Assembly (NCBI GenBank): GCA_965199755.1
Contig: CBDASZ010000001.1
Coordinates: 256,001-320,000, forward strand
Reading direction: 5' to 3'
DNA length: 64,000 nucleotides
Source: an uncultured candidatus Porisulfidus sp.
GTDB lineage: Bacteria > Pseudomonadota > Gammaproteobacteria > Poriferisulfidales > Poriferisulfidaceae
Numbering within the stretch: position 1 is the stretch's first letter; each line of letters opens with the position of its first letter. The notes under the pieces were generated by a model that saw only the letters and a list, made by a program, of their open reading frames with translations, searched no databases and was not told the DNA's origin. Position numbers and translations under genes: made by a program. Positions 1 to 16,109 of the stretch are shown piece after piece.

Positions 1-987
1 CTCGTGGTCGCTGCGCTCATGGTTGATAACCAGCACCGGGTCATTGCCGCGGTTTCTAGTCCACAGCGTTTTGCGCAAACGGGCCTGATTGTGTTCAATG
101 ACGGCGTTCGCGCAATTCAGAATAGGCGTGGTGGAGCGATAGTTTTGTTCCAGTTTCCACACCTTCAGATCGGGATGCTCTTTCTTGAAGCGCAGCATCA
201 GATCCGGGCGTGCGCCGCGCCAGCCGTAAATGGATTGATCGTCATCGCCGACAGTGAAGATCGGGATCGCGCCGCCGCTTAGCAGTTGCAGCCAGGCATA
301 CTGCAATTCATTGACATCCTGAAATTCATCCACCAGAAGGTGGCGGAGCCGTTGCTGGTAGTGGCCTGCGACCTCAGGGTGTTCGCGCAGCAGTTCCACC
401 GCGCCGAGCAGCAAATCGTCGAAATCCACCACGCCGCTTTCGGCGCAACGTTTTTCGTAGTGTCGCATGACGTCGATCAGATGTCCATCGGCAGGATGGT
501 CTTTCGGCACATGTTTGGCCCGCCGGCCGCGGGATTTTTGCTGGCTGATCCATCTGATCGCACGGTTGATGTCCGCTTTCTTGTGCGGCAGGTGGGCCGC
601 ACTGAGGCTGTCCCGAATCAGGCTCTGCTGATCTGCGCGATCGACAATCTGGAAGGACGGTTTCAGCTTGGCCTCTTTGGGGAAGCGCGCCAGCATGCGG
701 CGGCACAAACTGTGAAACGTGCCAACCCACATCCCGCTTGCCGTGTGACCGGTCAACTGCTGAATGCGCTCGCGCATCTCGGTGGCGGCCTTGTTGGTAA
801 AGGTGACGGCGAGGACCTGATGCGGAGATAGTTGCTGTGTTTCAAGCAGCCATGCGAAACGGTGGGTCAGGACTCGTGTCTTACCGGTGCCTGCACCCGA
901 CAAGACGATGCAATGTTCCTGCGGAGATGACGTGACAGCGTCGCGCTGCACCTCGTTGAGCGGGTCCAGAATGGAGCGGAGACTCAT
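1..987 (-). CDS. uvrD: ATP-dependent DNA helicase UvrD/Rep/PcrA family (5' part; runs off window start)
   Basis: Not in the ORF track. Manual translation from ATG 987 (TGATG overlap with the ubiB stop) gives MSLRSILDPLNEVQRDAV...SGAGTGKTRVLTHR (Walker A)...AVTFTNKAATEMRER...KLEQNYRSTT, the SF1 helicase motifs. Confidence 0.92.
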   Translation of the reverse strand, partial: MSLRSILDPLNEVQRDAVTSSPQEHCIVLSGAGTGKTRVLTHRFAWLLETQQLSPHQVLAVTFTNKAATEMRERIQQLTGHTASGMWVGTFHSLCRRMLARFPKEAKLKPSFQIVDRADQQSLIRDSLSAAHLPHKKADINRAIRWISQQKSRGRRAKHVPKDHPADGHLIDVMRHYEKRCAESGVVDFDDLLLGAVELLREHPEVAGHYQQRLRHLLVDEFQDVNELQYAWLQLLSGGAIPIFTVGDDDQSIYGWRGARPDLMLRFKKEHPDLKVWKLEQNYRSTTPILNCANAVIEHNQARLRKTLWTRNRGNDPVLVINHERSDHE

Positions 988-2516
988 CAGAACAGGCCGG
1001 CCCGATAGGCCAGCCATCCGGTGGCGGCCAGAAGCGCAAGGAGCCAGAATCTGAGCCATCGTGCGCTTCTGCGCTGCTCTTCAATCCGTTGCGTCAGTTT
1101 GCCTTGGACATCTTCAACAGAGGGGGGCGTTGCGAAATACGCGAGCAGTTTGGGAATCCAGTGTGACTGCGCCTCCGACAGCACCGCGCGGATACCGGCT
1201 TGTTCCCGAATCCAGCGCTTGATAAAGGGCGTGGTGGTTGTCCACAAGTTCAACTGCGGATACAACTCCCGGCTGATGCCTTCAATATTGATCAGGGTTT
1301 TTTCCAGCAAGGCCAGTTGCGGCTGAAGGTCCATGTGGAATCGGCGGGTGACCTGAAACAATTGCCACAGCAGGGCACCAAATGAGATTTCTGTGGGGGA
1401 GTACTGGAAAATCGGCTCCGAAACTGTGCGTACGGCCGCTTCGAAGTCCTCAATTCGCGTATCTGGCGGAACCCAGCCGGAACGGACGTGCAATTCGGCG
1501 ATCTGGCGATAGTCGCGCTTCAGCAAGGCGTCAAGGTTGAGCGCCAGATATAACAGATCGAAGCGAGACAGGGATCCGACGATGCCGAAATCGACGAGGT
1601 TGTAGCACGGCTTTTGGGGGTTGTCGATCGAAATGAAAATGTTGCCTGGGTGCATGTCGGCGTGAAACAGGTTGTGGTCGAAAAGTTGTCGGAAGAAGAT
1701 TTCCACCCCTTGTTTGGCGAGTTGCTCCATATCCACGCCGGCCCGCATCATGGCCTCGCGATCTGTTAAGCGGACGCCGGTGATGTGCTCCATGGTTATC
1801 ACATGGCGTGAGGTGTACTCCCAATACACGCGAGGAACGTACAGAAGGTCGCTGTCCTTGAAATTTCGGCGCATCTGGTTAGCGTTGGCCGCCTCGCGTC
1901 GCAGGTCAAGCTCGTCCAGAATGATTTTCTCGTATTCGCCGACCAGTTCCACCGGACGCAGCCGTCGGCTTTCCTTCCACAAAAACTCCAGCGTACGCGC
2001 TAGCGCATACATCAAATTCACGTCCTGATGCACCACTTTCTCAATATTGGGGCGCAGCACCTTAACGATCACGTTGACGCCATGCAGTTGCGCGACGTGG
2101 ACTTGCGCGATTGAAGCTGAGGCCAGCGCCTCTGTTTCAAAAGAGTCAAAAATTTCCGAGACCGGACGCCCCAGAGCCTTTTCGACTTCAGCGCGGGCCT
2201 GATCTCCGTCGAAGGGTGGCACCCGATCCTGCAACAATGCCAACTCGGCCGCCAGATCCCGCGGCAACATGTCGCCGCGTGTAGACAAGATTTGCCCGAA
2301 CTTGATAAACGCCGGGCCCAAATCCTGCAGCGCCAGACGGATGCGTGCTGGCAGTGGGTGGCGTTTCCTTCGATGCCAGTGCCACGGCAGAATACGCACC
2401 ACCCAGTGGACGGGCCGAAACAGCGGCATGGATAGCAGGTACTCGTCGACTTCGTGGCGGGCCAACGTCCACAAGATACGCAACAGTCGTGTCACAACGC
2501 GACCGGGCTGTTTCAT
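987..2516 (-). CDS. ubiB: Ubiquinone biosynthesis atypical kinase UbiB (ABC1 family)
   Basis: LGPAFIKFGQILSTR, LQDRVPPF, ASASIAQVH, VKVLRP, FHADMHPGN, DFGIVG motifs; C-terminal TM segment. Confidence 0.95.
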   Translation of the reverse strand: MKQPGRVVTRLLRILWTLARHEVDEYLLSMPLFRPVHWVVRILPWHWHRRKRHPLPARIRLALQDLGPAFIKFGQILSTRGDMLPRDLAAELALLQDRVPPFDGDQARAEVEKALGRPVSEIFDSFETEALASASIAQVHVAQLHGVNVIVKVLRPNIEKVVHQDVNLMYALARTLEFLWKESRRLRPVELVGEYEKIILDELDLRREAANANQMRRNFKDSDLLYVPRVYWEYTSRHVITMEHITGVRLTDREAMMRAGVDMEQLAKQGVEIFFRQLFDHNLFHADMHPGNIFISIDNPQKPCYNLVDFGIVGSLSRFDLLYLALNLDALLKRDYRQIAELHVRSGWVPPDTRIEDFEAAVRTVSEPIFQYSPTEISFGALLWQLFQVTRRFHMDLQPQLALLEKTLINIEGISRELYPQLNLWTTTTPFIKRWIREQAGIRAVLSEAQSHWIPKLLAYFATPPSVEDVQGKLTQRIEEQRRSARWLRFWLLALLAATGWLAYRAGLF

Positions 2517-2795
2517 AAGATCAGAGTTGTGCGGGACAGTGTATGCACGGGAGACAGAGTGGCAAAAAGCGGGTTATTGTGTCGCAGGCGTAGTGTTTCG
2601 CGCCAAAACAGGGGGTTGCGTGATTAGGGACACAATATTATAAGGCAGGGGCTTGTGGTGTGCATGCGGGTCAGCGGACAAAGTGATAGAGGATGACTGA
2701 TAAAATGGTAGTTGAAGCCACCGACCATATATAAAACTGGTTCTCAGATCATGCCCGAAAACAACGAAAATGACAATGATGGCATAATTCAGGGT

Positions 2796-4538
2796 ATGAA
2801 AGGTCTCATTCATCGCCTGCTTGGGGTGTCATTTGTGTTGGCGCTGGGGGCATTTGGCGTGGTAAGCGCGGACCCGGGCCTCAATATGCCCGAGGGCAGT
2901 TTCGTGGTAGCACTGCGCATAAACCCGCAGGATACAAAGGATTTAGAGCAATCTGATACGCAAGATTCAGGGGGTACACCAACTGACGAAGCCGAAACCG
3001 CGCCGCCGCAGGATCCGCCGGTCAATTCAGGGGATCAGGATGCGGAAAATCAGGAGGGATTGCGCGATTGGTTGGCGCGAGTGCTGTTTCCGCCGCAGTC
3101 TGCAGAGCTGGGGGACGGTGATGAGGCGTCAGAAGACAGTGCGCCGCAGACAGCTGAGGCTGAAGAGCCGGAGCCGTCGCCGCCCGCTGTGACAGAGGCG
3201 CCGCCTGAGGAGCCGGAACCACCCGAAGAGGCTGAAATTCCGCCAGAAGATCCTGCTGATGAAGAATCCGAAGATGTACTAACGCGGGCCGAGCGGGTCT
3301 TGGAAAATCTGGTCGATCTTTTGTTTGGCCTCCTGCCGGAAGAGACGGCCAGTTCACTAGACAGTCAGGATTCTGAGGAAAATCAGAGCGATTCCGAGCC
3401 TTCCGCAAGTGCGGAGGACCAGCAAAGCGCTGAATCCGCGCAAAGCGTACAGCGGGGAGCAGCTCAGCCTGCATCTTCCTTATCGCCTTCCACGCAAGGA
3501 CAGGGGACGGCCGGGACACCCACTAACACGCCAGCCGGCTCTGGGGACGGCGCTGAAGCACCATCAGGCAGTCCAGGCGAGTCGGGCGCTTCACAGGGGC
3601 AAGGCACAGGGCAGGGAGCAGTGTCCTCAGCGCCTTCTTCCTCCCCATCAGACAGCGCCTCCGGCTCCGAAGGGGGCAGTTCCGGGGAATCTTCAGGCGC
3701 ATCGGGATCAACCGAAAGTGCGTCAGGCGATCCGGGCGCTTCATCTGGACAGGGCGCAGCGGCTTCCGCATCCTCTACACCTTCGCAGGGTGCAGCAAAA
3801 GCCGGGGGGGCTGCGGCTGCTGAAGCGGGCAGCGCCTCCGCAGGCAGTGCGGTGGGCGACGTACAAGTCCCAGGGGTGCCAGGAGTACCCGGTTTACCGG
3901 GGCTGAGTCCCGGAGCCGGGCTAGGCCTTGACCTTGATCTGGAGCCAACGGTTTCAGGGGATGTGGGCACAGACGCATCGGGTGACACGGAAGGGACAGG
4001 GCAATCATCAGGCACTTCGGAATCTTCGGCAAGCGCATCAGGTCAGGAGGGCGCTTCGTCTGAACAGAACGCAGGTGCACCGGGCAATGCACCCGCACAG
4101 GGAGGCTTGGAATCAGGCAGTCCTGCAGGACGCGGGGTGACTCAGGCGGAGAAACAGGCCGAGATTGCTACCCGCGCCGGCAAGATCATGGAGAATCTTG
4201 ACGCTGTCTTGTTGCAGTCTCAGAAGGATCTGGAGGCCAGCACTGCGGAAGACGCGGAACTGGTGTCGATCGATGAAAGGTCGGGCTCCGGGGAGAGCGG
4301 CGATACGCAGGCGGAACAGGAGCAAACGGAAGACGGAGAAGAGGAGATGCAGCAGGGATCCAGAGACACAACGCCAGGCAATCAGGCCAGCAAAAGAGGT
4401 TCTGGTGGCGAGCTTGACCCGGAATCGGATATAGTGGTACGCCAAGTATGCGATCTTGCGGAACAAGAAGAGAATCCAGAGGTCAAACAGAAGCTGACAC
4501 AACGTTGTGCGGACATGAAAAAAGATGCGAAAAACTAA
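2796..4538 (+). CDS. Exported, acidic, largely disordered Ser/Gly/Ala/Pro/Glu-rich protein with a short helical C-terminal domain
   Basis: ORF 2712..4538. ATG 2796 gives the signal peptide MKGLIHRLLGVSFVLALGAFGVVSA; start uncertain. Low-complexity middle; C-terminus DIVVRQVCDLAEQEENPEVKQKLTQRC; overlaps the next gene. Confidence 0.75.
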   Translation: MKGLIHRLLGVSFVLALGAFGVVSADPGLNMPEGSFVVALRINPQDTKDLEQSDTQDSGGTPTDEAETAPPQDPPVNSGDQDAENQEGLRDWLARVLFPPQSAELGDGDEASEDSAPQTAEAEEPEPSPPAVTEAPPEEPEPPEEAEIPPEDPADEESEDVLTRAERVLENLVDLLFGLLPEETASSLDSQDSEENQSDSEPSASAEDQQSAESAQSVQRGAAQPASSLSPSTQGQGTAGTPTNTPAGSGDGAEAPSGSPGESGASQGQGTGQGAVSSAPSSSPSDSASGSEGGSSGESSGASGSTESASGDPGASSGQGAAASASSTPSQGAAKAGGAAAAEAGSASAGSAVGDVQVPGVPGVPGLPGLSPGAGLGLDLDLEPTVSGDVGTDASGDTEGTGQSSGTSESSASASGQEGASSEQNAGAPGNAPAQGGLESGSPAGRGVTQAEKQAEIATRAGKIMENLDAVLLQSQKDLEASTAEDAELVSIDERSGSGESGDTQAEQEQTEDGEEEMQQGSRDTTPGNQASKRGSGGELDPESDIVVRQVCDLAEQEENPEVKQKLTQRCADMKKDAKN

Positions 4539-5694
4539 CCAGCTGATCGGCTTGACGCTGCTGTGCGCACTGGCGACGGCCTGCAAAAGCGGGATCTATT
4601 CCGGTGGTTTCCTGTCGCTGGAGGATGATGCTCCCGCGGAGCCGATCCCGGTCGAGGCGTACATTGACGCGGGCATTGTCCGTTTCAAGGGGCCGATTGA
4701 CGAGGATGATCTAGCCGAAGGCAAAGTATTCAAGAAAGTCCGCGAAGCCGAGACGCATTATTTCCCGCAGCAGCTTCGCCAGGCGATGATTCGCAGCGGC
4801 GGCTGGCGACACGTCTGGGTGGTGCCCGAGACGTCGGTGGTGGATCTGAAGGTCGAGGGCTTGATCATCACTTCGGACGGTGAGGATCTGGATTTGCGGA
4901 TTATTGCCACTGATGCGACCGGCCGCAGATGGCTGGACAAAACCTACGACCATGAACTCACGGAGGAGAATTTCGCGCCAAGTCAGGGTGTGCAGATGCC
5001 GGACATGCTGTTTGACCAAATCGCCGCAGACCTGTTGAAGTTGCGCGACCGCCAAGGGGTGGAAGCGCTCAAGGAAATTCGCACGGTGGCGGAGTTGAAG
5101 TTCGCCAGAAATTTCGCACCGGAGGCGTTTGAGCGTTATGTCGGGCGCGATGGTGGCCGAGATTATCTGGTGTCGTTGCCGGCTCAGGACGATCTGAAGT
5201 ACCAGTTGGTGCTGCAGATTCGGGAATACGATGACCGGTTTATGGAGCAGTTGCAGGCCCACTCCATGAAGTTTTCCGACCGGATAGATTCCTCCTATCG
5301 CGATTGGCTCAAGCAAAGTTACTTTGAGCATCGCGCCCGTTCGGAAGAGGTCACCGACAGCGTTGTCCAAGGCGTGCTGAGTGTTTTGGCGCTGGCGGCC
5401 GGGGTGGCGATAGCGGCGGACGGCGGGCATCCTGACACACGCAATGCCGGAGTGTTGCTGGCGGCTGCCGGAGCGTATGGTGCTTACGAAGCGTATGGGA
5501 AATACGAAGGCACTGAAATTCACGACGCCGCATTGAAAGAACTCGGTCACTCACTCAATCTGGAGGTTGAGCCTCAGATCATTGAGATAGAAAGCGAAAC
5601 CTACACGCTTCGCGGTTCGGTCGAGGAGCAATATCAGCAGTGGCGCGACATCCTCAACGACATCTACGCATCGGAACGCGGCCTCCGCAATTGA
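4525..5694 (+). CDS. Putative outer-membrane lipoprotein with hydrophobic Gly/Ala hairpin
   Basis: Lipobox LATA-C20, +2 residue Lys; hydrophobic pair GVLSVLALAAGVAIAA / AGVLLAAAGAYGAY near the C-terminus. Confidence 0.8.
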   Translation: MRKTNQLIGLTLLCALATACKSGIYSGGFLSLEDDAPAEPIPVEAYIDAGIVRFKGPIDEDDLAEGKVFKKVREAETHYFPQQLRQAMIRSGGWRHVWVVPETSVVDLKVEGLIITSDGEDLDLRIIATDATGRRWLDKTYDHELTEENFAPSQGVQMPDMLFDQIAADLLKLRDRQGVEALKEIRTVAELKFARNFAPEAFERYVGRDGGRDYLVSLPAQDDLKYQLVLQIREYDDRFMEQLQAHSMKFSDRIDSSYRDWLKQSYFEHRARSEEVTDSVVQGVLSVLALAAGVAIAADGGHPDTRNAGVLLAAAGAYGAYEAYGKYEGTEIHDAALKELGHSLNLEVEPQIIEIESETYTLRGSVEEQYQQWRDILNDIYASERGLRN

Positions 5695-6425
5695 TCCGCA
5701 CCATCGGGGCGCTTGCGCTGGCGGTTTGGTCGGCGGTTGCGGTCGGCGCGGAATCCGCGGTGCCGCAAGCCGTGCTCGCGGCCATGGCTCGCGGTGACTG
5801 GGCGGAAGCGGCGCGACTGTTGCAGCCGCTTGACGGCGAGCGGGTGCGCGCCTACCGAAGTCAGGCTCTAGCGGAATTGCAGCATCTTGATGCCCGACCG
5901 CATATGCAGCAGGCCGAACAGGCGCGACAAAAACAAGACTGGAACGCTGCGGACGCGGCTTATGGCCGCGCGCTGGCGCGGGCTCCGTTGCTGGCGGCTG
6001 CGCAGAAGGGTCGCGCGCAAATCAAACCCTATATCGATGCGCATCAGCAACTGGCGGCACTGAAAGTGGATGAGGGTTTGTTTGATCCGGTGCTGCGGGC
6101 GCGGGCGCGGGACTGGCTGGCGGCGGTGCAGAAGCAAAAACTTTCAGATCCCAAAATCAATGCGGCGCTACGGGTGATCCCGCAAGTGGTCCAGCGTGCC
6201 GAGACACCGGTGTTTTTCACGCTGACTTCCGACGGCAAATCAGAGGTGGAGATCCATGGTGTGGGCAAGCTCGGACGTCTGCAGGAGCAGACCCTGAAAC
6301 TTGCTCCGGGGGATTATGTGGCGGTAGCGTTTCGTCCCGGCTATCGGGACACGCGCAAAGTCCTGCGGGTGCGACCGGATGAGACGTTGAGCGTGGACAT
6401 CCGCTGTACGGAGGAGATCCGGTGA
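5691..6425 (+). CDS. Exported TPR-like + PEGA-like domain protein
   Basis: TTG 5691 overlaps the upstream stop and gives the signal peptide MIRTIGALALAVWSAVAVGA; TPR-like helices (WNAADAAYGRALARAP); C-terminal beta domain LTSDGKSEVEI...LAPGDYVAVAFRPGYR. Confidence 0.75.
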   Translation: MIRTIGALALAVWSAVAVGAESAVPQAVLAAMARGDWAEAARLLQPLDGERVRAYRSQALAELQHLDARPHMQQAEQARQKQDWNAADAAYGRALARAPLLAAAQKGRAQIKPYIDAHQQLAALKVDEGLFDPVLRARARDWLAAVQKQKLSDPKINAALRVIPQVVQRAETPVFFTLTSDGKSEVEIHGVGKLGRLQEQTLKLAPGDYVAVAFRPGYRDTRKVLRVRPDETLSVDIRCTEEIR

Positions 6426-8236
6426 GCGTTCCGATTCGTGAGCAGCCGTATGTGCCTCCGGCTTCCGGTGGCGGGCCAAGGAAGCGGCGGCGCTGGTGGC
6501 CGGCTTTGCTGGTGTTGCTGGCGGCGCTGGTGGTCGGCGTGCTCGCCGCCACGATGGGGCGATTGCAGACTTTTGAGGTGACCCCGGCTGAGGCGACGGT
6601 GCAACTGGATCCGAAACCGTTGCTATCAGGAGATGACTGGGCCTTGCTGCACTGGCACTGGACCTATCAAGTTGAGGCGACGGCAGAAGGGTATCGTTCC
6701 TTGAAGCAGGAGTTGCTGGTGGATGACAGCAGTCCTTCAGTGTTGCGTCTGGAACTGGAGCCGCTGCTGGGTGCCTTGCGTGTGGTGACAGACCCGAAGG
6801 TGACAGGAGAAGTAAGTCTTGAGGGCAAACGGGTCGGACTGACAGGCAATGTGATTGAGGAGTTGGAGCCTGGAATTTACGACGTAGAGGTACGCGCGCG
6901 CGGTTATGAGCCGGGGCGCGCTGAGGCGAAGGTACATGGCTATGGCGCAGTCGATGAGATCACGCTGGAATTGGTCGCTTTGGCACTGGTTGGGACGCTG
7001 ACGCTCAGCAGCGATCCTGCGGGCGCGGATCTGCTCATCAACGGTGCGGCGCAAGGGCGCGCTCCACAGACGTTGACGGGGGAAGTGGGTGCGAAGTTAC
7101 AGGTGGTGGCGCTGTATCCGGGACATGACGTGGCGCGCGCGACGCTGACTGTGCGCGAAGGGGCGCAGAAACACACTTTGCGTCTGCCGGCGCGTGTCGG
7201 CACAGTGGAGTTGTTTCCGACGCCGACCAATGCGATGATCCGTATTGATGGTGAACTGGAACTGCGCCGAAAACTGGAACTGCCGCAGCGCGAGCACCAG
7301 ATTGAGGTCTCCGCTCCGGGGCATATCACCCGAACCTATCGTCTTACGCCTCATCCAGAGTCTGCGGCGCGGCTGAGCGTTCGTCTGTTGCCGGAGTCCG
7401 TTGCGGCTACGGGACGGCGGCAGAAATGGGAGCAGGAGCAGAAGTTGCAGTTTGTGTCGTATCGGCCTTACGAATCGTTTGCCATTGAGACGACGCGGCG
7501 CAAAATCCCGGTGCGCCTCACCCGTCCGTTCGCGATTCTCGATCGCGAAGTCAGCAACAAGTTGTATCGCAAGTTCCGCGACAGTCATGATTCCGGCAAG
7601 TTCAAGGGCAAGACCCTCGACAACGGGTCGCAACCGGCGGTGCGGATGTCGTGGAATGACGCCGCGCTGTTTGCGAACTGGGCGAGCGAGCAGGCCGGAG
7701 TGGCACCGTTTTATCGAATGAAGGATGGTCAGGTGAGGGGCTTTGATGCCAGTGCCATCGGTTACCGCTTGCCGACGGACGCCGAGTGGGTATGGTTGAC
7801 GCGGCGTGAGGGGCGTTTTGCATGGGGTGATGGCCGGCCGCCAAACCGTTTTGCCAATATGGCGGATCGCACGGCCTCAAAACTGTTGTCGCAGGTGAGC
7901 AAGGAATACACTGACGGATTTGAGGTCAGCGCTCCGGTCGGCAGTTTGCAGCCGGTAACACGAGGGAAGTTGTATGATTTGCCGGGGAATGTGGCGGAAT
8001 GGATACACGACGTGTACGGCAGTGATGTTAAATTGTTGATTGACACGGGGGGCCGCGGCGTTTCCGAGGAACGGGTGGATCCCTTGGGGGTGGCGAAGGG
8101 GCAGTTCCATGTGGTGCGCGGCTTCAGCTGGCGCACTTCAAGCCAGCGAGAACTCAGTCTGGCGTACCGGAATTATGGTGCGAAAGGCAAGCTCGATGTG
8201 GGTTTTCGGCTTGCCTACTATTTGGATCCAAAATGA
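6422..8236 (+). CDS. Membrane-anchored multi-PEGA + FGE/SUMF1-fold protein
   Basis: RKRRR followed by a TM helix; repeated PEGA-like units (LSSDPAGADLLING, EPGIYDVEVRARGY); SUMF1 motifs EVSN..Y, PAVRMSWNDA, YRLPTDAEW, LYDLPGNVAEW, VVRG.SW, VGFR. Confidence 0.88.
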   Translation: MSVPIREQPYVPPASGGGPRKRRRWWPALLVLLAALVVGVLAATMGRLQTFEVTPAEATVQLDPKPLLSGDDWALLHWHWTYQVEATAEGYRSLKQELLVDDSSPSVLRLELEPLLGALRVVTDPKVTGEVSLEGKRVGLTGNVIEELEPGIYDVEVRARGYEPGRAEAKVHGYGAVDEITLELVALALVGTLTLSSDPAGADLLINGAAQGRAPQTLTGEVGAKLQVVALYPGHDVARATLTVREGAQKHTLRLPARVGTVELFPTPTNAMIRIDGELELRRKLELPQREHQIEVSAPGHITRTYRLTPHPESAARLSVRLLPESVAATGRRQKWEQEQKLQFVSYRPYESFAIETTRRKIPVRLTRPFAILDREVSNKLYRKFRDSHDSGKFKGKTLDNGSQPAVRMSWNDAALFANWASEQAGVAPFYRMKDGQVRGFDASAIGYRLPTDAEWVWLTRREGRFAWGDGRPPNRFANMADRTASKLLSQVSKEYTDGFEVSAPVGSLQPVTRGKLYDLPGNVAEWIHDVYGSDVKLLIDTGGRGVSEERVDPLGVAKGQFHVVRGFSWRTSSQRELSLAYRNYGAKGKLDVGFRLAYYLDPK

Positions 8237-8457
8237 AGTACCTCTCTCTCGGCCTGTTGTTGTTCGCGGGGACGGCGATGGCGCAGGAGCCGCCTCCGGC
8301 AAAGGATTTAGACGCGCCGGATACGCCGTTGCTGGTCGATGTGCTCACCGGAGAGGAACTGGAGGAGATCTCGAAGAATCCCTCGCTGGTGCGCGCGCCG
8401 GCGCCGAAAGAGAAAATCACTGCGGATGAAGCAGTGGATATGCCGCGGGACATCTGA
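8233..8457 (+). CDS. Small exported acidic/Pro-rich protein (74 aa)
   Basis: Signal peptide MKYLSLGLLLFAGTAMA; ATGA and TGATG overlaps with both neighbours. Confidence 0.75.
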   Translation: MKYLSLGLLLFAGTAMAQEPPPAKDLDAPDTPLLVDVLTGEELEEISKNPSLVRAPAPKEKITADEAVDMPRDI

Positions 8458-9335
8458 TGCGTTTGCCGAACTGGCGTGACAACGAAGTGGTCTGGCAACT
8501 GCTGGCGCTGTTGCTGAGCATCGTGCTGGTGCATGCGGCGTATGAGCTGGTGGTGCGTCCCACCGCGGCGGTCGAATTGCAGCGTCAGGCGGTGCTGGCG
8601 CAGGCCGAAGCGCCGGCGGATCTGCTGGAGCCGCCTGTGTCAGTGAAGGCGGCGGTTGTGATCAAGGATTACGAACAGGAAGCCTGCTTCATCGCGCTGT
8701 TTTGGGCTTTCGCCATCATGTGGATGAAAGTAATGAAATTACAGTTCTCACGGCGTCTTCTGAGCTGGCCGGGACGCGGTGGAGAGGAGAGTTTTCTGGA
8801 AACCACCGACACGGATGTGATCCTGCCGCAACCGCAGGATCGAGCGCGCTTTGCGGAGATACGCGAACATGCCCGTCAGCATGGCTTCGGCGGCGCGGTG
8901 TTGTTTCAGGCGGTCGATGCCTGTCTGGACCGGTTCTTCACCACGCATTCCGTGTCGGATGCGACCGCGGCGATGAAGGCGCGCTGTGAAATGGAAGCGG
9001 AGCGTCAGGACACCGAACTGGCGCTGGTGCGTTATCTGACCTGGGCGATTCCGTCCTTGGGCTTCATTGGCACGGTTCGCGGCATCAGCGCGGCGCTGGG
9101 ACAGGCGGAAGAGGCGACGCGCGGCAATATTGGGCCGGTGACCGAAAGTCTGGGCGTGGCGTTCAATTCAACCTTTGTCGCCTTGCTGATCAGTCTGATC
9201 ATCATGCTGCTACTGCACAAGTTGCAGGAGGCCCAGGAATCCTTGGTGCTGGATTCGCAGGAACATTGTCAGCATCACCTGTTGCGCTACTTGCGCGGAC
9301 GGGTGCGCGCGGATGAACCCTCTGCTTCGGATTGA
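8457..9335 (+). CDS. MotA/TolQ/ExbB proton channel family protein
   Basis: WAIPSLGFIGTVRGI and LGVAFNSTFVALLISL match the TolQ/ExbB C-terminal TM pair; two additional N-terminal hydrophobic segments. Confidence 0.92.
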   Translation: MRLPNWRDNEVVWQLLALLLSIVLVHAAYELVVRPTAAVELQRQAVLAQAEAPADLLEPPVSVKAAVVIKDYEQEACFIALFWAFAIMWMKVMKLQFSRRLLSWPGRGGEESFLETTDTDVILPQPQDRARFAEIREHARQHGFGGAVLFQAVDACLDRFFTTHSVSDATAAMKARCEMEAERQDTELALVRYLTWAIPSLGFIGTVRGISAALGQAEEATRGNIGPVTESLGVAFNSTFVALLISLIIMLLLHKLQEAQESLVLDSQEHCQHHLLRYLRGRVRADEPSASD

Positions 9336-10275
9336 CGGCTATCTTCTGGCGCACGCCCAAGGCGAGCGTTGGGAGGCCGAATGGTGCGCCGCACATAGGC
9401 TCGAAGGCCGCAAGCGCTGGCAGTTTGGAAGCGGTAGCCTGTTGCCGGTCAAGCATGACGGCAACGAGAACAACAGTTATTTCGAGCGGCTGGAAGCCTA
9501 CGACATCGGTAGTGGTGGCTCCGATCTGGATATGGCGTATTGGCACCTGCAGCAGTTTTCTTCTGCCACGAACGATGCGTCTTTGGATTTACTGGTCAGC
9601 GCGACCTTAAATCAGGCGCGTCTGGAACGTCTGATGGGCGTGCTGTCCGCTTTGGGGCATCGCCCCCGGCGTGTGCTGCCGCATGCGTTGCTGGCCGCAT
9701 GGCAGGAAGCCCGCAGACGGAGTGCCGGGGCTGGCGGCACATATCAACTCATTGAGCTGGGGCGCAGCCACTGCAGCATCAGCACGGTTCGGGTGGATGC
9801 GAATGAGGTGGTGCTGTCCTCTCCGCATGCGCGGGAGTACGAGTTCGGGTTTCAGCAGATCTTCTCGCAATGGATGGAGCAGGCGGCGCAAGAGTTTGCC
9901 GCGCGTCAACGTTTCGACATTCACCGCAATCTGGTGGCGAACCGCGAACGCCTGTTCTTGCAGATGCGCCGGGCATCGTACGACGAGGACGCGCAATCCG
10001 AGTCACTGGAGCTGGACTCTCATGTAATTGCGTTAGATCTGGAGTCTTTCGCAATCAACTGGCCCGCGGATATGCTGGAAGCGGACGCGGACCACTGTTG
10101 GCTAGTGCGGCCCCTGACTCAGGAACTGGCCTTGTACCCGCCCGGCGTTAGTTATCAGGGGAAGGTGTCGTGTCTCTGCCCGGAAGGGTCGGTTGACGCG
10201 GTGCGTCAAGCGTTGGAGAGCGTACCTGAGGGCGATGGGCCTGAGTTGATTACGGAACTGAAACTGGGCTCGTGA
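9313..10275 (+). CDS. Cytoplasmic hypothetical protein, possible actin-like (GspL-cyto/PilM/FtsA-like) fold
   Basis: No signal peptide or TM. LERLMGVLSALGHRPRRVLPHALLAA followed by YQLIELGRSHCSISTV resembles the connect-1/phosphate-2 region of actin-fold proteins. Confidence 0.6.
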   Translation: MNPLLRIDGYLLAHAQGERWEAEWCAAHRLEGRKRWQFGSGSLLPVKHDGNENNSYFERLEAYDIGSGGSDLDMAYWHLQQFSSATNDASLDLLVSATLNQARLERLMGVLSALGHRPRRVLPHALLAAWQEARRRSAGAGGTYQLIELGRSHCSISTVRVDANEVVLSSPHAREYEFGFQQIFSQWMEQAAQEFAARQRFDIHRNLVANRERLFLQMRRASYDEDAQSESLELDSHVIALDLESFAINWPADMLEADADHCWLVRPLTQELALYPPGVSYQGKVSCLCPEGSVDAVRQALESVPEGDGPELITELKLGS

Positions 10276-11315
10276 GTGTTAGAAACCGCCAACGTTTTCT
10301 GAACCCGTTTGGGTTGGCGTTTCTGGATGTGATGTCCTGCGGCCTAGGGGCTGCAGTGCTGTTGTTTCTGATTATTGATCACAACCTGACCGAGCAGGCG
10401 GTGGCCTCGGAGACCGGGGAGGAGGACGTTCAGGTCATTGAGGAGGCCATTGAGCAGCAACAGAAACTTTCTATACAACACCGCTTGCAGACGAAGCAGT
10501 TGCAGAAGGAACTGGAGCAGTTGTCCGATGAGCGCGTGGAGACGTTGGTCGCGCTGGCTGAAGCACGCTCAGGTAGCGCCGAGGAAGTGGATACGGAAGA
10601 ACTTGAGCGTCAGTTGCGAGAGAAGCAAGAGCAACTGCAGCAAGCCAAGGAAAGTCAGCAGTTGCGTGATATTTCCGGGGAAGGGCAAAGGCAGTACGTG
10701 GCGGGGTTTCGGATAACCGGAAAGCGTGTTCTGTTTCTGCTGGATAGATCAGCCAGCATGCAGGATGAGAAGATTGCCACCATCATTTACAACCAGTTTC
10801 TGCCCAATGAAACGCAGCGCCAAAGCTCCAAATGGCTTTGGGCCCGTTCTATTCTGGAGTGGATGTTGGCGGCGCTGCCAAAAGACGCGCAATATCAGGT
10901 CTGGGGTTTCAGCAAGAAATATAGCCCGGTTATTTCGAGCCGTTCCTGGATGAATGCCAGCAATGAAGAGGATATGCGGAAAGTGATTGAGGCGGTGGGC
11001 CGATGGGTGCCCAAAGACGGCACACGTCTGGATAAGATGCTAAACAAGGTCAAGAATATGCGCCCGGCACCGGATACCGTCTACATCATTACAGACGGGC
11101 TGCCGACACAAGGATCCAGTTGGTTTAAAAAATCCAAGGTTAGCCCGGAGAAGCGAAAGGAATTCTTCCTTGAGGCTACAACAAAAATCATGTTTCCAAG
11201 GTTCAATGTGGTGTTGCTGCCGCTGGAAGGAGATCCTGAGGCGGCAGGGTTGTACTGGCGTTTTGCCATGCGAACAGGCGGGCAGTTTCTGGCTCCGTCG
11301 AAGGAATGGCCATGA
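10272..11315 (+). CDS. ExbD/MotB-like TM + coiled coil + VWA domain protein (copy 1)
   Basis: TM LAFLDVMSCGLGAAVLLFLII contains Asp; Q/E-rich coiled coil; MIDAS FLLDRSASM...DGTRL...IITDGLP. Confidence 0.88.
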   Translation: MSVRNRQRFLNPFGLAFLDVMSCGLGAAVLLFLIIDHNLTEQAVASETGEEDVQVIEEAIEQQQKLSIQHRLQTKQLQKELEQLSDERVETLVALAEARSGSAEEVDTEELERQLREKQEQLQQAKESQQLRDISGEGQRQYVAGFRITGKRVLFLLDRSASMQDEKIATIIYNQFLPNETQRQSSKWLWARSILEWMLAALPKDAQYQVWGFSKKYSPVISSRSWMNASNEEDMRKVIEAVGRWVPKDGTRLDKMLNKVKNMRPAPDTVYIITDGLPTQGSSWFKKSKVSPEKRKEFFLEATTKIMFPRFNVVLLPLEGDPEAAGLYWRFAMRTGGQFLAPSKEWP

Positions 11316-12274
11316 AGCGCGCGCGACGTAATCAGGACAACAATTTGTCCTTTCTGGATGTGATCAGTTGCAGCTTTGGCGCAATCATCTTGCTGATCCT
11401 GATCTCCAAACCTGCGGATGGGCCGCCGATTGAGGATTTGAGTCTTGAGATTGAAGCCCTGAAGGAAGCGCTCGTGAAAATCACCAGCATTCGGGAAGCA
11501 CTGGCGGAGGAAGAGGACAAAACCGAGAAAAAACTTCAGGCGCAACGGCAGCAACTGATCGAGGACAAGGAATCTCTGCAGGAAGCGAAGCGCGCGCAGG
11601 CAGGAGCCGAAGCGCAAACCTTGATTGCGGGCACTCTGAAGGCGGCATTGCAGCGCCTTAATGAAGAGATGAAGCGTCTGGATCTGAAGCCGTCGGAGCC
11701 GGATGTGATTGGTGGTATTCCGGCCGATAGTGAGTATCTGATTTTTATTATTGACACTTCAGGGAGCATGAAGCGCTACGTGTGGGAGCGCGCCAAGAAG
11801 CAAATGGTTGAGTTGCTGGATGCGTACCCGAAGGTTCGCGGCATTCAGATCATGAATGATATGGGGGAATATATGTTTAGCGGCTATCGCAGACGCTGGA
11901 TTCCTGACACGCCGTCACGTCGCGAGATCATATTGAAACGCTTCGACAGTTGGAGTTCCTACAGCAACTCCAGTCCAGTTGAAGGGATCTTGGAGGCGAT
12001 TGAGCGCTTTCGCATGAAGTCGGACAAGATCAGTCTATATGTTTTGGGTGATGAGTTCACTGGACAGTCGCTGCAAACAGTGATCGACACCGTTGAGAAA
12101 CTCAACTATCAGGATGGCGAGCGTCAGGTGCGCATTCACGCAATTGGATTCTTCCCACGTGCGGTTGTGGCGCAGTTCCCGGACTATGCGCATACGACGA
12201 CCCGTTACGCCGCATTGATGCGCGAACTGACCCGCCGCAATGGTGGATCATTTTTAGGGGTGCTGGTGAATTAA
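11312..12274 (+). CDS. ExbD/MotB-like TM + coiled coil + VWA domain protein (copy 2)
   Basis: TM LSFLDVISCSFGAIILLILI contains Asp; coiled coil; MIDAS FIIDTSGSM...NSSP...VLGDEF; ATGA overlap at 11312. Confidence 0.88.
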   Translation: MKRARRNQDNNLSFLDVISCSFGAIILLILISKPADGPPIEDLSLEIEALKEALVKITSIREALAEEEDKTEKKLQAQRQQLIEDKESLQEAKRAQAGAEAQTLIAGTLKAALQRLNEEMKRLDLKPSEPDVIGGIPADSEYLIFIIDTSGSMKRYVWERAKKQMVELLDAYPKVRGIQIMNDMGEYMFSGYRRRWIPDTPSRREIILKRFDSWSSYSNSSPVEGILEAIERFRMKSDKISLYVLGDEFTGQSLQTVIDTVEKLNYQDGERQVRIHAIGFFPRAVVAQFPDYAHTTTRYAALMRELTRRNGGSFLGVLVN

Positions 12275-12368
12275 ATGGGGCCTCAAGGCTATGTGTAGGG
12301 TGGAGGTCTTCGATAGAAGTTAGGTCTACTACGGCAGAAGTGGCTAGTCTTTATAAAATCGAATCTGG

Positions 12369-12669
12369 CTATTCGCACTCGTATTGAACTTCTGCCATAT
12401 CGATGACTTCTTGGCGGGAATAGCGACTTAATTCTGCGGCAGTTCTTAAATCCACTTGGCGTCTTCCAAACAAGGCCGATAATTCGATCTCCATGCCGGC
12501 CATACCAAAGAACCCATTCGGTCTGGAGGAATTCAGCCAGCAAGTCAATATCGCTGTTAGGACCAAAATTATCCCGCAATGCTGAACCAAAGATGGAAAG
12601 TTTTCGAATACCGCTATCGCGACAGAACGTACTCAATTCGGCTTCTCGGATCGATAAGTTGGGATTCAT
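12369..12669 (-). pseudogene. Frameshifted minimal nucleotidyltransferase (MNT/MntA-type antitoxin)
   Basis: One frame reads MNPNLSIREAELSTFCRDSGIRKLSIFGSALRDNFGPNSDIDLLAEF (GS...DxD). The C-terminal half GFFGMAGMEIELSALFGRRQVDLRT...RQEVIDMAEVQY is in another frame; the shift is near 12520. Confidence 0.85.
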
Positions 12670-12767
12670 GGCTGGAACCCACAAATTTGGGTTGATAGTG
12701 ATTCTAATTTCACCTTCCAATCAGGATGCAGAGAATTGGGCATCCTTCACTGACTAACAACCTACCG

Positions 12768-13622
12768 TTACTGTACTGGATCGACAGCCACCCAAGTTCC
12801 CAAATCACGCAACAATTCCGCTTCCTCTCCAAACCCTTCCAGCGCGGCCAAAGCCTGTTCTCCCAGCCCGGCAAGAAGCTTGCAGGTTTCCGCGTGTCCG
12901 AGTAAAGAAGGATAAGTCGGACGCTCTTCATCAGTGTCTTGCTCAATATCTTCAAGATCATCGCGCACCTGAAATGCCAGACTGACATTCTCCGCATACT
13001 GTTTGAGTGCTTCGCGACGCGGATCTTCTGGTGGGATCAATGTCGTGGGCATCATCACCGAAGCATAAATCAGACAGCCGGTTTTGAGTCGATAGATCTG
13101 CTCCAGCATTTCCACCGTGCACTCAGGCGCATCCAGCACACTCATATCCAGTTGTTGTCCGCCGATCATGCCGCAAGAGCCGCTGGCCTGACAGAACTGA
13201 TCCAGAATGCTGCGTGCCTCACTGGCGGACAAGTCGGGATCGGAGGCAACTTCATTGAAGGCGCAAATCAGCAAGGCATTGCCGGTCAGCAGGGCGGTGG
13301 CTTCACCGAATGCCTTGTGACAAGACGGTTGGCCGCGCCGGATATCGTCATCGTCCATGCATGGCAAATCATCATGGATCAGAGAGTACGCATGCACCAG
13401 TTCCGTCGCGCAGGCGATGCGGTCCAGACGCGATGCGTCGATGCCGGTCGCTTGGCCTGAGGAGTACACCCAGCAGGCGCGCACACATTTTCCTGGACTG
13501 GCCGCACCATGGCGCATGGCGGCATGCAAGCGTTGTGGTGCTACCTCTGCAGGAGGCAGGACTTCTTCAATGCGAGCAATAACCCGCTGCCGCAGCGGGG
13601 CCAGTTTAGCGATCAGGTCCAT
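12768..13622 (-). CDS. ispA: Farnesyl diphosphate synthase / geranyltranstransferase
   Basis: HAYSLIHDDLPCMDDDDIRRGQP, GGQQLD, KTG, FQVRDD motifs. Confidence 0.93.
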   Translation of the reverse strand: MDLIAKLAPLRQRVIARIEEVLPPAEVAPQRLHAAMRHGAASPGKCVRACWVYSSGQATGIDASRLDRIACATELVHAYSLIHDDLPCMDDDDIRRGQPSCHKAFGEATALLTGNALLICAFNEVASDPDLSASEARSILDQFCQASGSCGMIGGQQLDMSVLDAPECTVEMLEQIYRLKTGCLIYASVMMPTTLIPPEDPRREALKQYAENVSLAFQVRDDLEDIEQDTDEERPTYPSLLGHAETCKLLAGLGEQALAALEGFGEEAELLRDLGTWVAVDPVQ

Positions 13623-14074: not shown

Positions 14075-14821
14075 TTATTGTTGGATGGTAGGGGTTACTC
14101 GTGCACCTCGATGAATGGCAACGATACCTGCACTCATATTAGCATATTGGCAAGCATAGAATCCTGCGGCGCGCATCATTTCGCGCATGCTTCGCTGATC
14201 AGGATGCCGATCAATGGATTCGGCAAGGTAGTGATAACTTGCAGAATCATTAGCGATGACCTGCCCCAGAAGCGGCAAGGCGAGATGCCGATACGCATGA
14301 TACCAGGGCGCGAGCCAGGACTCCGGCTTTGAAAACTCCAGCACCAGTGCCCAACCGCCGGGGCGCAGCACGCGGTGCATTTCACGCAGACAGCGTGACG
14401 GCTCGGTGACATTGCGCAGGCCAAACGCGATCAGCACTCGGTCAAAAGAAGCGTTGGGAAATGGCAATTCCGAGGCATCGCCTTGCACAAAAGGCACGTC
14501 CACTATCCCGGAATCCAGCATGCGATCCCGTCCGCGCGCCAGCATGCTTGCGTTAATGTCGCACAGGACAACCTGACCATCGTCGCCCAGCATCGGGCGC
14601 ATCCAGTTTGCAAGATCGCCGGTTCCCCCAGCCAGATCCAGCACGCGATAGCCCGGCCGCAATCGCGCCTGCAGCACCAGCGCTTGCTTCCAGAATCGGT
14701 GCAGTCCGCCCGACATCAGATCGTTCATCAGATCGTAGCGCTGCGCGACGGAATCGAAGACGTCGCCGACCAGATGGGTTTTCTCTTCGGGCGTGACTTC
14801 CGTGTAGCCAAAATGAGCCAT
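14075..14821 (-). CDS. ubiE: Ubiquinone/menaquinone C-methyltransferase UbiE
   Basis: HFGY, VFDSVAQRYDLMNDLMSGGLHRFWK, LDLAGGTGD, FGLRNVT, YLAESI. Confidence 0.96.
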   Translation of the reverse strand: MAHFGYTEVTPEEKTHLVGDVFDSVAQRYDLMNDLMSGGLHRFWKQALVLQARLRPGYRVLDLAGGTGDLANWMRPMLGDDGQVVLCDINASMLARGRDRMLDSGIVDVPFVQGDASELPFPNASFDRVLIAFGLRNVTEPSRCLREMHRVLRPGGWALVLEFSKPESWLAPWYHAYRHLALPLLGQVIANDSASYHYLAESIDRHPDQRSMREMMRAAGFYACQYANMSAGIVAIHRGARVTPTIQQ

Positions 14822-15200: not shown

Positions 15201-16109
15201 TTAGTTGCGTCGCCGTTGCGCGCGCGGATGCGCGCGGTCGTACGTTTGCGCCAGATGCTGGTAATCGAGGTGTGTGTAGATCTGGGTGGTGCTGATGCGG
15301 CGATGTCCGAGCAACTCCTGCACCGCGCGCAGATCCCCGGAGGATTCCAACAAATGGCTGGCGAAAGAATGGCGCAGCAAATGCGGGTGCAGCGCCTGAT
15401 TGCTTTGATAGTGCAAACCGAAGCGGCGCAGGCGGTACTGTACGCTGCGCGCCGACAATCGCTTGCCGCGTTTGCTGATGAACAAGGCGGGTTCGTCCGC
15501 TGCCGCCCAGGTGTTGCGGATTTTCAGCCAGCGCGTAATGGCCTCATGCGCTTTTTGTCCGATCGGCAGTTTGCGCTCCACACGCCCCTTGCCCATCACC
15601 CGCATCTCATCGCTTTCCAGATCCAGATTCGGACAGTCCAGTCCGACCAGTTCAGATAAACGCAAGCCGCTCGAATACAGCAATTCCAGCATGGCCAGAT
15701 CCCGACTTTCCAGATCATCTTTGGGAGGGGTGTCCAGCAGGCGCATCAGGCCGTCAATGTCCAGTACCTGAGGCAGGTTTCGGGCCGGGTGCGGCACGCT
15801 TACGCCGCGCGCGGGGTTGTCAGCGCGCTGGCCCAAAGCGATCTGGTGCTCGTAGTATCCGCGCAAGGCCGACAGGCAGCGCTGAATGGTGCGCGGGGCA
15901 CGCCCGCGACGAAACAACTGTGCGGTGTAGCGCTGCACATCGTCTTCTTTAGCCTCGGCCAGAGGCAACGATTGATCCTCAAGCCAGGTGGCAAACTTGC
16001 GCAGATCACGCAGATAGTGGTTGCAAGTGTGCGGTGAATAATTGCGCTCCCAACGCAGAAAATCATGGAATTTCTGCAAGGACGCAGCACTCGCGTCACG
16101 GTCGCTCAT
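15201..16109 (-). CDS. xerC: Tyrosine recombinase XerC
   Basis: ELLYSSGLRLSEL, GKG, HPHLLRHSFASHLL, LLGH..ISTTQIYTH; dapF-DUF484-xerC synteny; start at MSDRD (ATGA overlap). Confidence 0.94.
   Translation of the reverse strand: MSDRDASAASLQKFHDFLRWERNYSPHTCNHYLRDLRKFATWLEDQSLPLAEAKEDDVQRYTAQLFRRGRAPRTIQRCLSALRGYYEHQIALGQRADNPARGVSVPHPARNLPQVLDIDGLMRLLDTPPKDDLESRDLAMLELLYSSGLRLSELVGLDCPNLDLESDEMRVMGKGRVERKLPIGQKAHEAITRWLKIRNTWAAADEPALFISKRGKRLSARSVQYRLRRFGLHYQSNQALHPHLLRHSFASHLLESSGDLRAVQELLGHRRISTTQIYTHLDYQHLAQTYDRAHPRAQRRRN

Follow-up and report, generated by a model that had tools for sequence, protein, structure and literature searches.

A reduced nine-gene operon of a candidatus Porisulfidus sp. 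with the predicted core of an ion-driven envelope motor bearing paired vWA subunits

Nine co-directional, overlapping open reading frames (ORFs; here g1-g9) occupy positions 2796-12274 of the plus strand in the window analyzed here, a 64,000-nucleotide stretch of DNA from an uncultured candidatus Porisulfidus sp. They combine an ion-channel subunit with two membrane-tethered vWA proteins and several predicted envelope proteins, which raises the question of what such a gene set might do. The answer we favor, at a probability of roughly 0.7, is an ion-driven envelope machine of the MotA/ExbB/TolQ 5:2 type, a claim that concerns a motor-plus-force-transduction core. What the analysis shows are the genes, their domains and conserved residues, the synteny and a supporting model of the g8-g9 pair; from these we infer the 5:2 assembly, the rotation, the ligand and the output. 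The nine genes are as follows.

g1, 2796-4538, plus strand: secreted, acidic, mostly disordered protein; 580 amino acids from ATG 2796, with TTG 2712 likewise open
g2, 4525-5694, plus strand: lipoprotein of 389 amino acids, probably of the outer membrane
g3, 5691-6425, plus strand: helical, secreted protein whose C-terminal beta domain resembles PEGA; 244 amino acids (TTG 5691) or 261 amino acids (GTG 5640)
g4, 6422-8236, plus strand: bitopic inner-membrane protein of 604 amino acids; PEGA repeats are followed by an FGE/SUMF1-fold domain, non-catalytic and of PorK/GldK type
g5, 8233-8457, plus strand: small secreted peptide of 74 amino acids with the conserved extreme C-terminus ..MP.DI
g6, 8457-9335, plus strand: ion-channel subunit of the MotA/TolQ/ExbB family, 292 amino acids; presumably the "A" component, a pentamer, in a 5:2 motor
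g7, 9313-10275, plus strand: cytoplasmic protein of the Hsp70/actin fold (ASKHA), 320 amino acids; probably a non-catalytic scaffold
g8, 10272-11315, plus strand: first "B" subunit, 347 amino acids; basic tail, Asp-bearing transmembrane (TM) helix, coiled coil and vWA domain with a metal-ion-dependent adhesion site (MIDAS)
g9, 11306-12274, plus strand: second "B" subunit, a paralogue of g8 with the same architecture, 322 amino acids

The channel subunit and its paired vWA partners

The channel subunit g6 matches the Pfam family MotA_ExbB at 6.4e-12 (45.8 bits versus a cut-off of 22.9) and shows sub-threshold NCBIfam likeness to PomA and TolQ. Among solved structures, PomA is closest to it in sequence (E 0.038), and it resembles PomA/MotA no less than TolQ. 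Four hydrophobic segments were recognized, at 15-33, 77-95 and 234-252 plus the helix carrying the motif GTV. The Thr of GTV as well as the Thr of NST in the last helix align with the pore-helix Thr of PomA and TolQ. The gene ends 937 nucleotides upstream of g8, with g7 alone in between.

Within the 1.39-Mb genome (98.9% complete), g6 is one of five MotA_ExbB genes. The other four are distributed over three loci, every one of which holds an ExbD-family gene; congruently, a genome-wide search for ExbD gave matches at three other loci only and none in the cluster. Because TolB (TolB_N, beside a TolQ/TolR pair on contig 2) and TonB_C (in another MotA_ExbB locus) were found at such MotA_ExbB/ExbD loci, the genome has separate Tol-Pal and Ton loci besides g1-g9, leaving g6 as the only channel gene without an ordinary partner. 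A further ExbB/ExbD-type pair, the third, was observed on contig 1 at about 802600-803400, giving a total of four MotA/ExbB-family systems in the 1.39-Mb genome. No TonB_C, TolA, TolB, OmpA/Pal, ExbD or receptor domain was reported by Pfam or NCBIfam in the nine proteins.

The candidate partners of g6 are g8 and g9, two distant paralogues with 25% identity over 158 amino acids (E 5e-7). The vWA domain of g8 is recognized by the Pfam family VWA_2 (3.4e-6; 28.1 bits versus a cut-off of 27), and a PDB sequence search with g8 returned nothing meaningful (best E 0.82). Both proteins have one TM helix right after the basic tail, FLDVMSCGLGAAVLLFLII in g8 (17-35, FLDVMSCG...) and FLDVISCSFGAIILLILI in g9, neither of them with an SHLS motif; the shared start reads ..(A/S)FLDV(M/I)SC.. 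and continues with about 16 hydrophobic residues. By eye, the helices plainly resemble the ion-binding helix of B-type subunits, which in the TolR and the two ExbD proteins encoded elsewhere in this genome consists of the motif ..P(L/Y)IDV.. plus a hydrophobic run. The helix Asp is near-invariant across 18 sequences of g8 (D19) and invariant across 52 of g9 (D18). In the same sets, invariance extends to the g8 MIDAS residues D158, S160, S162, T251 and D275 and to D150, S152, S154 and D249 of g9, the latter covering DxSxS...D only, with DxSxS invariant throughout the alignment. Both vWA domains accordingly appear, as judged from these alignments, to retain an intact MIDAS motif.

A full-length fold model supports the formation of a heterodimer by g8 and g9. 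It scored 0.74 (median of three runs at 0.74, 0.74, and 0.76), compared with 0.02 for the best of three controls; in the calibration of the modelling tool, the mark applied to such complex scores was attained by 58 of 80 solved complexes and by 2 of 110 mismatched pairs. The runs share at least 70% of contacts, and the predicted local distance difference test (pLDDT) of the partners is at least 74. The modelled interface consists of a heptad-spaced parallel coiled coil (g8 49-99, g9 45-98) and the C-terminal edges of the two vWA domains. The combination of MotA_ExbB channel, Asp-bearing helices and vWA domains bears out the sequence-only reading of the locus, made before any database search, which had proposed a TolQ/ExbB motor with two VWA-fused ExbD-like partners and had noted that the cluster encodes no canonical TonB, TolA, TolB, Pal or TonB-dependent receptor.

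The same proteins could also belong to no motor at all. The vWA pair and the PEGA/FGE protein g4 would instead form a static trans-envelope scaffold or a metal-dependent adhesion complex in the manner of BatA/BatB, which are membrane-anchored vWA proteins, and g6 would be only a channel or regulator. TM-anchored vWA domains do occur in non-motor systems, and the Pfam model of ExbD misses g8 and g9, so that their B-type helix likeness comes down to a short motif. A plain anchor, however, would need no Asp in the membrane, and here both paralogues keep this residue invariant or nearly so even between distant genomes. The pore Thr of g6 is retained as well, g6, g8 and g9 stand together in all 59 related loci compared, and neither a MoxR ATPase nor a BatA N-domain was seen by Pfam. 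We therefore consider a static complex improbable.

Accessory proteins and the longer cluster of relatives

Topology of g1-g9 was derived from simple hydropathy and inspection of the N-termini, those of g1, g3 and g5 being signal-like. From these signal-like, lipobox and TM features it follows that the products are predicted to reach the cytoplasm, the inner membrane and the periplasm, and presumably the outer membrane through g2, which agrees with the span from cytoplasm to outer membrane assumed earlier. Pfam and NCBIfam offered no family for g1, g5 and g7 and nothing credible for g2.

The most informative accessory protein is g4, with a single TM helix (28-46) after a short basic cytoplasmic tail and Pfam matches to PEGA (3.6e-15) and FGE-sulfatase (3.6e-24). 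Catalytic formylglycine-generating enzyme (FGE) needs a pair of Cys. As g4 contains zero cysteines, it cannot act as a catalytic FGE despite the presence of the fold. A PDB sequence search with the FGE-fold domain found 5aoh (2.2e-14) and PorK/GldK (3e-7), and the NCBIfam model of GldK, TIGR03525, matched at 3.2e-13 but with only 49.8 bits against a cut-off of 350. For g3, the Pfam matches to PEGA (0.079) and CarboxypepD_reg (0.058) are weak. Its residues 70-243 align to about 320-510 of long homologues that bear TPR repeats, and g3 can be read from this alignment as a shortened form of a TPR-PEGA protein of about 510 amino acids, of which the C-terminal third was kept.

The lipoprotein g2 carries a lipobox-like ..ATAC with Cys20 invariant in 49 sequences (consensus L..GC). 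Its model, based on these 49 sequences (pLDDT 77.2, predicted TM-score (pTM) 0.74), comprises an N-terminal alpha/beta domain, then a long hairpin of helices containing a hydrophobic stretch rich in Gly and Ala, and lastly a small domain at the C-terminus. At E<=1e-3, Foldseek matched the N-domain only to the LPHT flagellar ring of Vibrio (8z5n, 2.5e-4) and to FlgT (3w1e, 9e-4), followed by PelC (1.5e-3, TMt 0.55) and then TolB and LptE. These likenesses to FlgT, PelC, the N-domain of TolB and LptE, all of them envelope lipoprotein or ring components, are weak leads obtained from a model. The nearest Atlas clusters of g2 are named "lipoprotein family/hypothetical" and have no Pfam family.

These two proteins are where the main rival explanation takes its start. 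It shares the motor core and differs in the output, which would be secretion, translocation of a polymer or adhesin over the surface, or gliding, as performed by GldLM/T9SS (type IX secretion system) and AglRQS/Glt, with the PorK-like FGE domain of g4 together with g2 and g3 building a periplasmic or outer-membrane ring. Among named models, the FGE fold of g4 is indeed nearest to PorK/GldK (TIGR03525; PorK in the PDB), yet its GldK score stays at 49.8 of 350 bits and g4 is TM-anchored without a lipobox. We take the gene order of FGE-protein, channel and B-subunits to recall gldK-L-M. The N-domain of g2 resembles the ring-forming lipoproteins FlgT and PelC, and vWA adhesins participate in Myxococcus gliding according to PMC9946355. 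On the other side, Pfam and NCBIfam revealed neither a secretin nor an outer-membrane beta-barrel in the nine proteins, and likewise neither GldL/M/N nor a cargo signal; among the carriers are, moreover, genomes of 1.4-2.0 Mb from a sponge-associated genus. Taken together, such a transport function is unlikely. For this sponge-associated carrier genus we know of no report of motility.

The remaining accessory proteins are less conserved in sequence. g1 has an N-terminal hydrophobic, signal-like segment (residues 8-26) and a composition of 7% D, 11% E, 14% S, 13% G and 13% A. Its C-terminal stretch resembles, by eye, the conserved C-terminal motif of the acidic lipoproteins that adjoin g2 upstream in longer clusters (family F8), and g1 is taken as their counterpart. 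The small g5 is 38-53% identical in the six closest loci; in long clusters, the small ORFs that take its place (F11) have the ending ..FPVDI, and the shared form ..(F/M)P.DI was recognized by eye in three sequences.

For g7, in which no TM segment was detected, a model from 52 sequences (pLDDT 72.3, pTM 0.71, residues 1-69 poor) gave top Foldseek matches that were all Hsp70 nucleotide-binding domains (E 5.8e-7 and up, TMq 0.36-0.48), and its Atlas neighbors are Hsp70/MreB clusters (0.90-0.91). The designation "actin-like" given to it earlier consequently holds at the level of the fold, with the matches themselves pointing to Hsp70. NCBIfam likeness to GspL is weak (18.4 bits versus a cut-off of 65), and the pairwise comparison with the Maricurvus protein gave E 3e-5. 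Phosphate-binding loops of ASKHA proteins are glycine-rich, of the DxG and DxGGGT type. The g7 family alignment instead has ..ELND.. and ..D/E-[IL]-x-L-x-[HQ].. at the presumed loop sites (positions assigned by eye) and no conserved Gly-rich loop. Because the Hsp70 fold comes without conserved glycine-rich loops, g7 is probably a pseudo-ATPase scaffold. Homologues of about 440 amino acids (e.g., locus L073, 8682-9992) possess an additional C-terminal part of about 120 alignment columns, ..NG........L..GD.I.., which looks FHA-like to the eye; this extra domain found nothing in Pfam at E<=0.1.

Conservation was examined by tblastn (E<=1e-3, at least 30% of the query) in 59 related loci, each extending 8 kb or more upstream and 1.1 kb or more downstream of its match to g8; they were picked by g8 similarity and are kin to each other, hence not independent. 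All 59 loci contain g4, g6 and g9, whereas 57 contain g2 and 51 contain g3. Colinearity in the order g2<g4<g6<g8<g9 is seen in 57 of the 59, much more than chance would give, so that the co-conservation check proposed for the locus came out positive for these five genes. Direct tblastn mostly fails for g1, g5 and g7 in distant loci (2, 5 and 6 of 59); their positional counterparts were found through clustering and by eye. At E<=1e-3, g8 has 952 relatives, and species-representative genomes hold at least 588 confirmed g8-family stretches (at least 590 pattern matches). Among the 80 loci retained are ones from Microbulbifer, Maricurvus, Kineobactrum, Parahaliea, Pseudohongiella, Halieaceae, Porticoccaceae and Cellvibrionaceae, with several Microbulbifer species, Maricurvus nonylphenolicus KU41E, Kineobactrum sediminis and Parahaliea mediterranea as cultured carriers. 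Close relatives of the genes in the window stem from sponge-metagenome records titled Candidatus Porisulfidus.

On a broader scale, the g8 family occurs in 36 of 400 sampled Gammaproteobacteria (~9%, E<=1e-20), one of the positives (G079) being an unpublished genome. Of 401 genomes sampled from the phylum, 20 have the g9 family. A single family of another class contributes 16 of them, with the g9-type protein matching at E 1e-70 to 1e-96, a pattern that suggests lateral spread or ancient patchy retention. Closer to the window, all 15 genomes searched from the same genus (1.2-2.0 Mb) have g6 (E<=1e-128), as do 7 of the 12 from one sister family (E<=1e-36); in a family with genomes of about 1 Mb, only 1 of 12 gave a match, and a weak one (1.2e-4). 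A flag "1 TAG inside" on the same-genus g6 matches stems from the gene's own stop being read through; the gene is not broken.

This distribution bears on a further explanation, namely an anti-phage defence of the Zorya type, in which a MotAB-like complex would sense envelope perturbation. It could be derived from weak matches of g6 to ZorA (PADLOC 0.0051, 13.8 bits; NCBIfam ZorA_4 0.05), scores which are at noise level, and a ZorB-type peptidoglycan-binding domain, a ZorC/ZorD nuclease/helicase or any other Zor model was not matched. The presence of g6 throughout the genus is unlike patchy defence islands, and the flanking gene families are constant in the five closest loci. Hence, we regard Zorya as very improbable. 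PADLOC as a whole gave ZorA, WYL and LmuB only, at noise level, and a defence reading was rejected.

The usual cluster is larger than the one in the window. When the ORFs of 62 loci were clustered over 15 kb (with a crude longest-ORF caller, so that counts are too low), it comprised about 13 genes in the order F9 (a TPR protein), F8 (= g1), g2, the ~510-amino-acid TPR form of g3, g4, F11 (= g5), g6, the ~440-amino-acid form of g7, g8, g9, F7 and F6. F7 and F6 are conserved lipoproteins of about 220 amino acids 3' of g9 (e.g., L073, 12103-15063; most loci L025-L095), with a lipobox Cys near the N-terminus and no Pfam family. An M48 peptidase (F10, ~490 amino acids; Pfam 1.3e-37 in Maricurvus) follows in 32 of the 62 loci, and a positional homologue of g7 was found by clustering in 52 of the 62 long loci. 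The window lineage is without F9, F7 and F6, no F7, F6 or M48 peptidase being located 3' of g9; its g3 amounts to the C-terminal third and its g7 is shorter by the C-terminal ~120 residues. The operon had been called self-contained as a set of nine genes, a description that does not hold for the family, since most carriers have about 13 genes including a TPR protein and two lipoproteins missing here.

Gene layout, flanking genes and hints of transcription

The nine ORFs and all their junctions agree with those drawn from the sequence at the outset, apart from amended starts of g3 and g9. g1 and g2 overlap at 4525-4538, g2 and g3 at 5691-5694 (TTGA), and g6 and g7 at 9313-9335; the other genes meet at GTGA (g3/g4, 6422), ATGA (g4/g5, 8233), TGATG (g5/g6, 8457), GTGA (g7/g8, 10272) and ATGA (g8/g9, 11312). 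The start codon of g3 at 5691 is TTG, with an alternative in-frame GTG at 5640, and g9 has two possible ATG starts, at 11306 and 11312.

The flanking genes lie on the opposite strand and are unrelated to the operon, which therefore has its borders at 2796 and 12274. Upstream, an ABC1/UbiB-type kinase is encoded (987-2516, minus strand), and downstream a nucleotidyltransferase, a polyprenyl synthase, a UbiE-type methyltransferase (14075-14821, minus strand) and a tyrosine recombinase (15201-16160; Phage_integrase, 2e-48). The same gene families flank the operon in L017-L021, the five nearest loci whose flanks are long enough. With the kinase on its 5' side and the methyltransferase on its 3' side, the operon sits amid ubiquinone-pathway genes. 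Immediately 3' of it lies the small nucleotidyltransferase-domain ORF (12289-12720, minus strand). Across 12037-12744, DNA contigs of one sequencing run are fragmented with variants and a second run has an 11-nucleotide deletion at 12516; this stretch appears to vary between strains.

Contigs from RNA libraries (two metatranscriptomic runs of one study; 160-515 nucleotides, at least 99% identity) cover parts of g1-g7, among them 3282-3535 and 3911-4018 on g1, and span the g4/g5 junction (8151-8310) as well as the g5/g6 junction. They are a weak hint that the operon is transcribed, as such contigs give neither strand nor level and DNA carry-over is possible. No RNA contig was located on 10088-12900 (g8, g9) or 2300-3007, which by itself says nothing on expression. 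A promoter scan found six promoter-like sites compared with 3.2 +/- 2.1 in shuffles, none of them upstream of g1 on the plus strand, and a terminator scan found nine sites compared with 9.4 +/- 2.6.

Proposed mechanism and relation to known systems

In the machine that we propose, g6 would form a pentameric channel ring in the inner membrane, and the Asp-bearing N-terminal helices of g8 and g9 would lie as a heterodimer inside its pore, replacing TolR/ExbD. Flow of the driving ion, probably the proton, via the Asp/Thr site would turn or pull the g8-g9 pair, and the parallel coiled coil, some 50 residues long or longer, would transmit this movement to the periplasm. There, the paired vWA head might grip an acidic ligand with its two MIDAS metal sites. 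Such a ligand would most likely be co-encoded, with g2, g4 together with g3, the acidic g1 and the Asp-containing C-terminus of g5 as candidates. On the cytoplasmic face, g7, whose nucleotide loops look degenerate, would dock as scaffold or regulator.

Several observations weigh against this proposal. The vWA match of g9 (4.5e-4, 20.9 bits) is under the Pfam cut-off of 23.8, and the kinship of the g8 and g9 helices to ExbD is a short motif seen by eye that the ExbD family of Pfam does not match. The g8-g9 model was built on custom alignments and describes a heterodimer only; high scores can also come from paralogues and coiled coils, and the confidence of a model does not amount to a measurement. 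Modelling covers this pair, so that docking into the g6 ring at 5:2 is an extrapolation. Neither the promoter nor the terminator scan rises above shuffles. Furthermore, with three genes fewer and a shortened g3 and g7, the reduced cluster may work differently or be partly decayed, and there is no pointer in the evidence to one particular ligand or output.

With respect to the output, we tentatively favor force on the outer membrane, or its tethering or remodelling, i.e., a maintenance role comparable to Tol-Pal, because the accessory set is rich in lipoproteins and the operon is retained in reduced genomes without secretion or motility parts in the cluster. The accessory set at the same time offers concrete candidates for the target of the motor, and the cultured carriers make its function directly testable.

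The proposed machine is comparable to several known systems. It shares with ExbB-ExbD-TonB and TolQ-TolR-TolA/Pal the channel family, an Asp-bearing partner helix and a presumed transfer of force across the periplasm. It differs in that the partner itself holds the output domain (coiled coil plus vWA), with no handing on to a third protein. The Ton system has an ExbD periplasmic domain, TonB_C and a TonB-dependent receptor, none of which was reported in the nine proteins, and Tol-Pal has TolA, TolB and Pal beside TolQR, none of them located in the cluster. GldLM is a motor of the 5:2 type with inner subunits that extend into the periplasm, and the GldK-L-M-N (PorK-L-M-N) set of T9SS and gliding is similar in placing a cysteine-free FGE-fold protein by such a motor. 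In contrast to GldK/PorK, g4 has a TM anchor and PEGA repeats, no lipobox and the low GldK score given above; the B subunits here end in vWA, the hosts are Pseudomonadota, and NCBIfam matched no GldL, GldM or GldN among the nine proteins. Agl-Glt of Myxococcus, a TolQR-like motor, is said to combine two distinct B-type subunits with TPR proteins and a vWA adhesin, the vWA there being located on the outer-membrane lipoprotein CglB and not fused to B subunits, a likeness drawn by description. The links to Agl-Glt and T9SS suggested at the beginning thus stand as analogies. MotAB/PomAB and ZorAB of Zorya resemble the locus in the PomA affinity and four-segment topology of g6; they differ by an OmpA-like peptidoglycan-binding domain, which g8 and g9 lack, and no flagellar genes are nearby.

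The closest correspondence is with a prediction by Williams-Jones et al. (Mol Biol Evol 2025, PMC12204202), whose passages on a "second family" of TM-tethered vWA proteins describe tight co-occurrence with tolQ without tolR/exbD, mostly as heterologous pairs and mainly in Proteobacteria and Verrucomicrobia. According to the same passages, these proteins have a "transpore helix" that resembles TolR/ExbD and bears a conserved Asp, AlphaFold 3 puts the Asp pair inside a Thr ring of the TolQ-like pentamer, the prediction is computational, and the function of the family is given as unknown. All features compared agree with our locus: a TolQ/ExbB/MotA-family gene (g6) near the vWA genes; no tolR, exbD or motB in the cluster (no ExbD or OmpA family in the nine proteins); vWA domains on a helix of the TolR/ExbD kind that has the conserved Asp and lacks an SHLS motif; a heterologous pair, with g8 and g9 being 25% identical and both present in 59 of 59 loci; a pore Thr in the channel; and a proteobacterial host. 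The operon can therefore be placed in this class on predicted features, by the description given in the paper and not by its Idiomarina seed proteins, and is, as far as that description extends, a reduced-form example of a predicted, experimentally uncharacterised kind of motor. Section 8 and the Fig. 4 legend of PMC12204202 name no accessory genes, whereas six types are co-conserved here and in related loci, namely the lipoprotein, PEGA, PEGA-FGE, Hsp70-fold, acidic disordered protein and small peptide.

In the literature, we found no experimental study of a TolQ-like/vWA-pair system and no paper joining ExbB/TolQ, vWA, PEGA and FGE-sulfatase, and "transpore helix" in PMC12204202 only. PMC12905483, a 2026 review of Ton/Tol citing that paper, does not mention vWA, and PMC12505986 on the evolution of MotAB mentions neither von Willebrand, FGE nor PEGA. 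The operon's earlier description as uncharacterised is consequently right with regard to experiments, the motor core having been predicted computationally in 2025 in the passages of PMC12204202 cited above.

Whether the operon goes beyond a variant of Ton/Tol is a matter of the whole assembly. It would constitute a distinct trans-envelope class if a 5:2 motor with an obligate heterodimer rotor, its integrin-like MIDAS domains acting as "hands", were combined with a PorK-like/PEGA scaffold, a ring-type lipoprotein, pseudo-Hsp70 control and a co-encoded acidic-tail ligand (g1 or the ..P.DI end of g5) in a novel surface process, a possibility that we regard as rather doubtful. A distinct machine of this kind would drive a surface process retained by a sponge-associated genus with genomes of 1.2-2.0 Mb. 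The 5:2 ion motors known so far drive flagella, Ton uptake, Tol-Pal, gliding, T9SS and Zorya; the family would add one whose inner subunit itself bears a metal-dependent vWA binding head.

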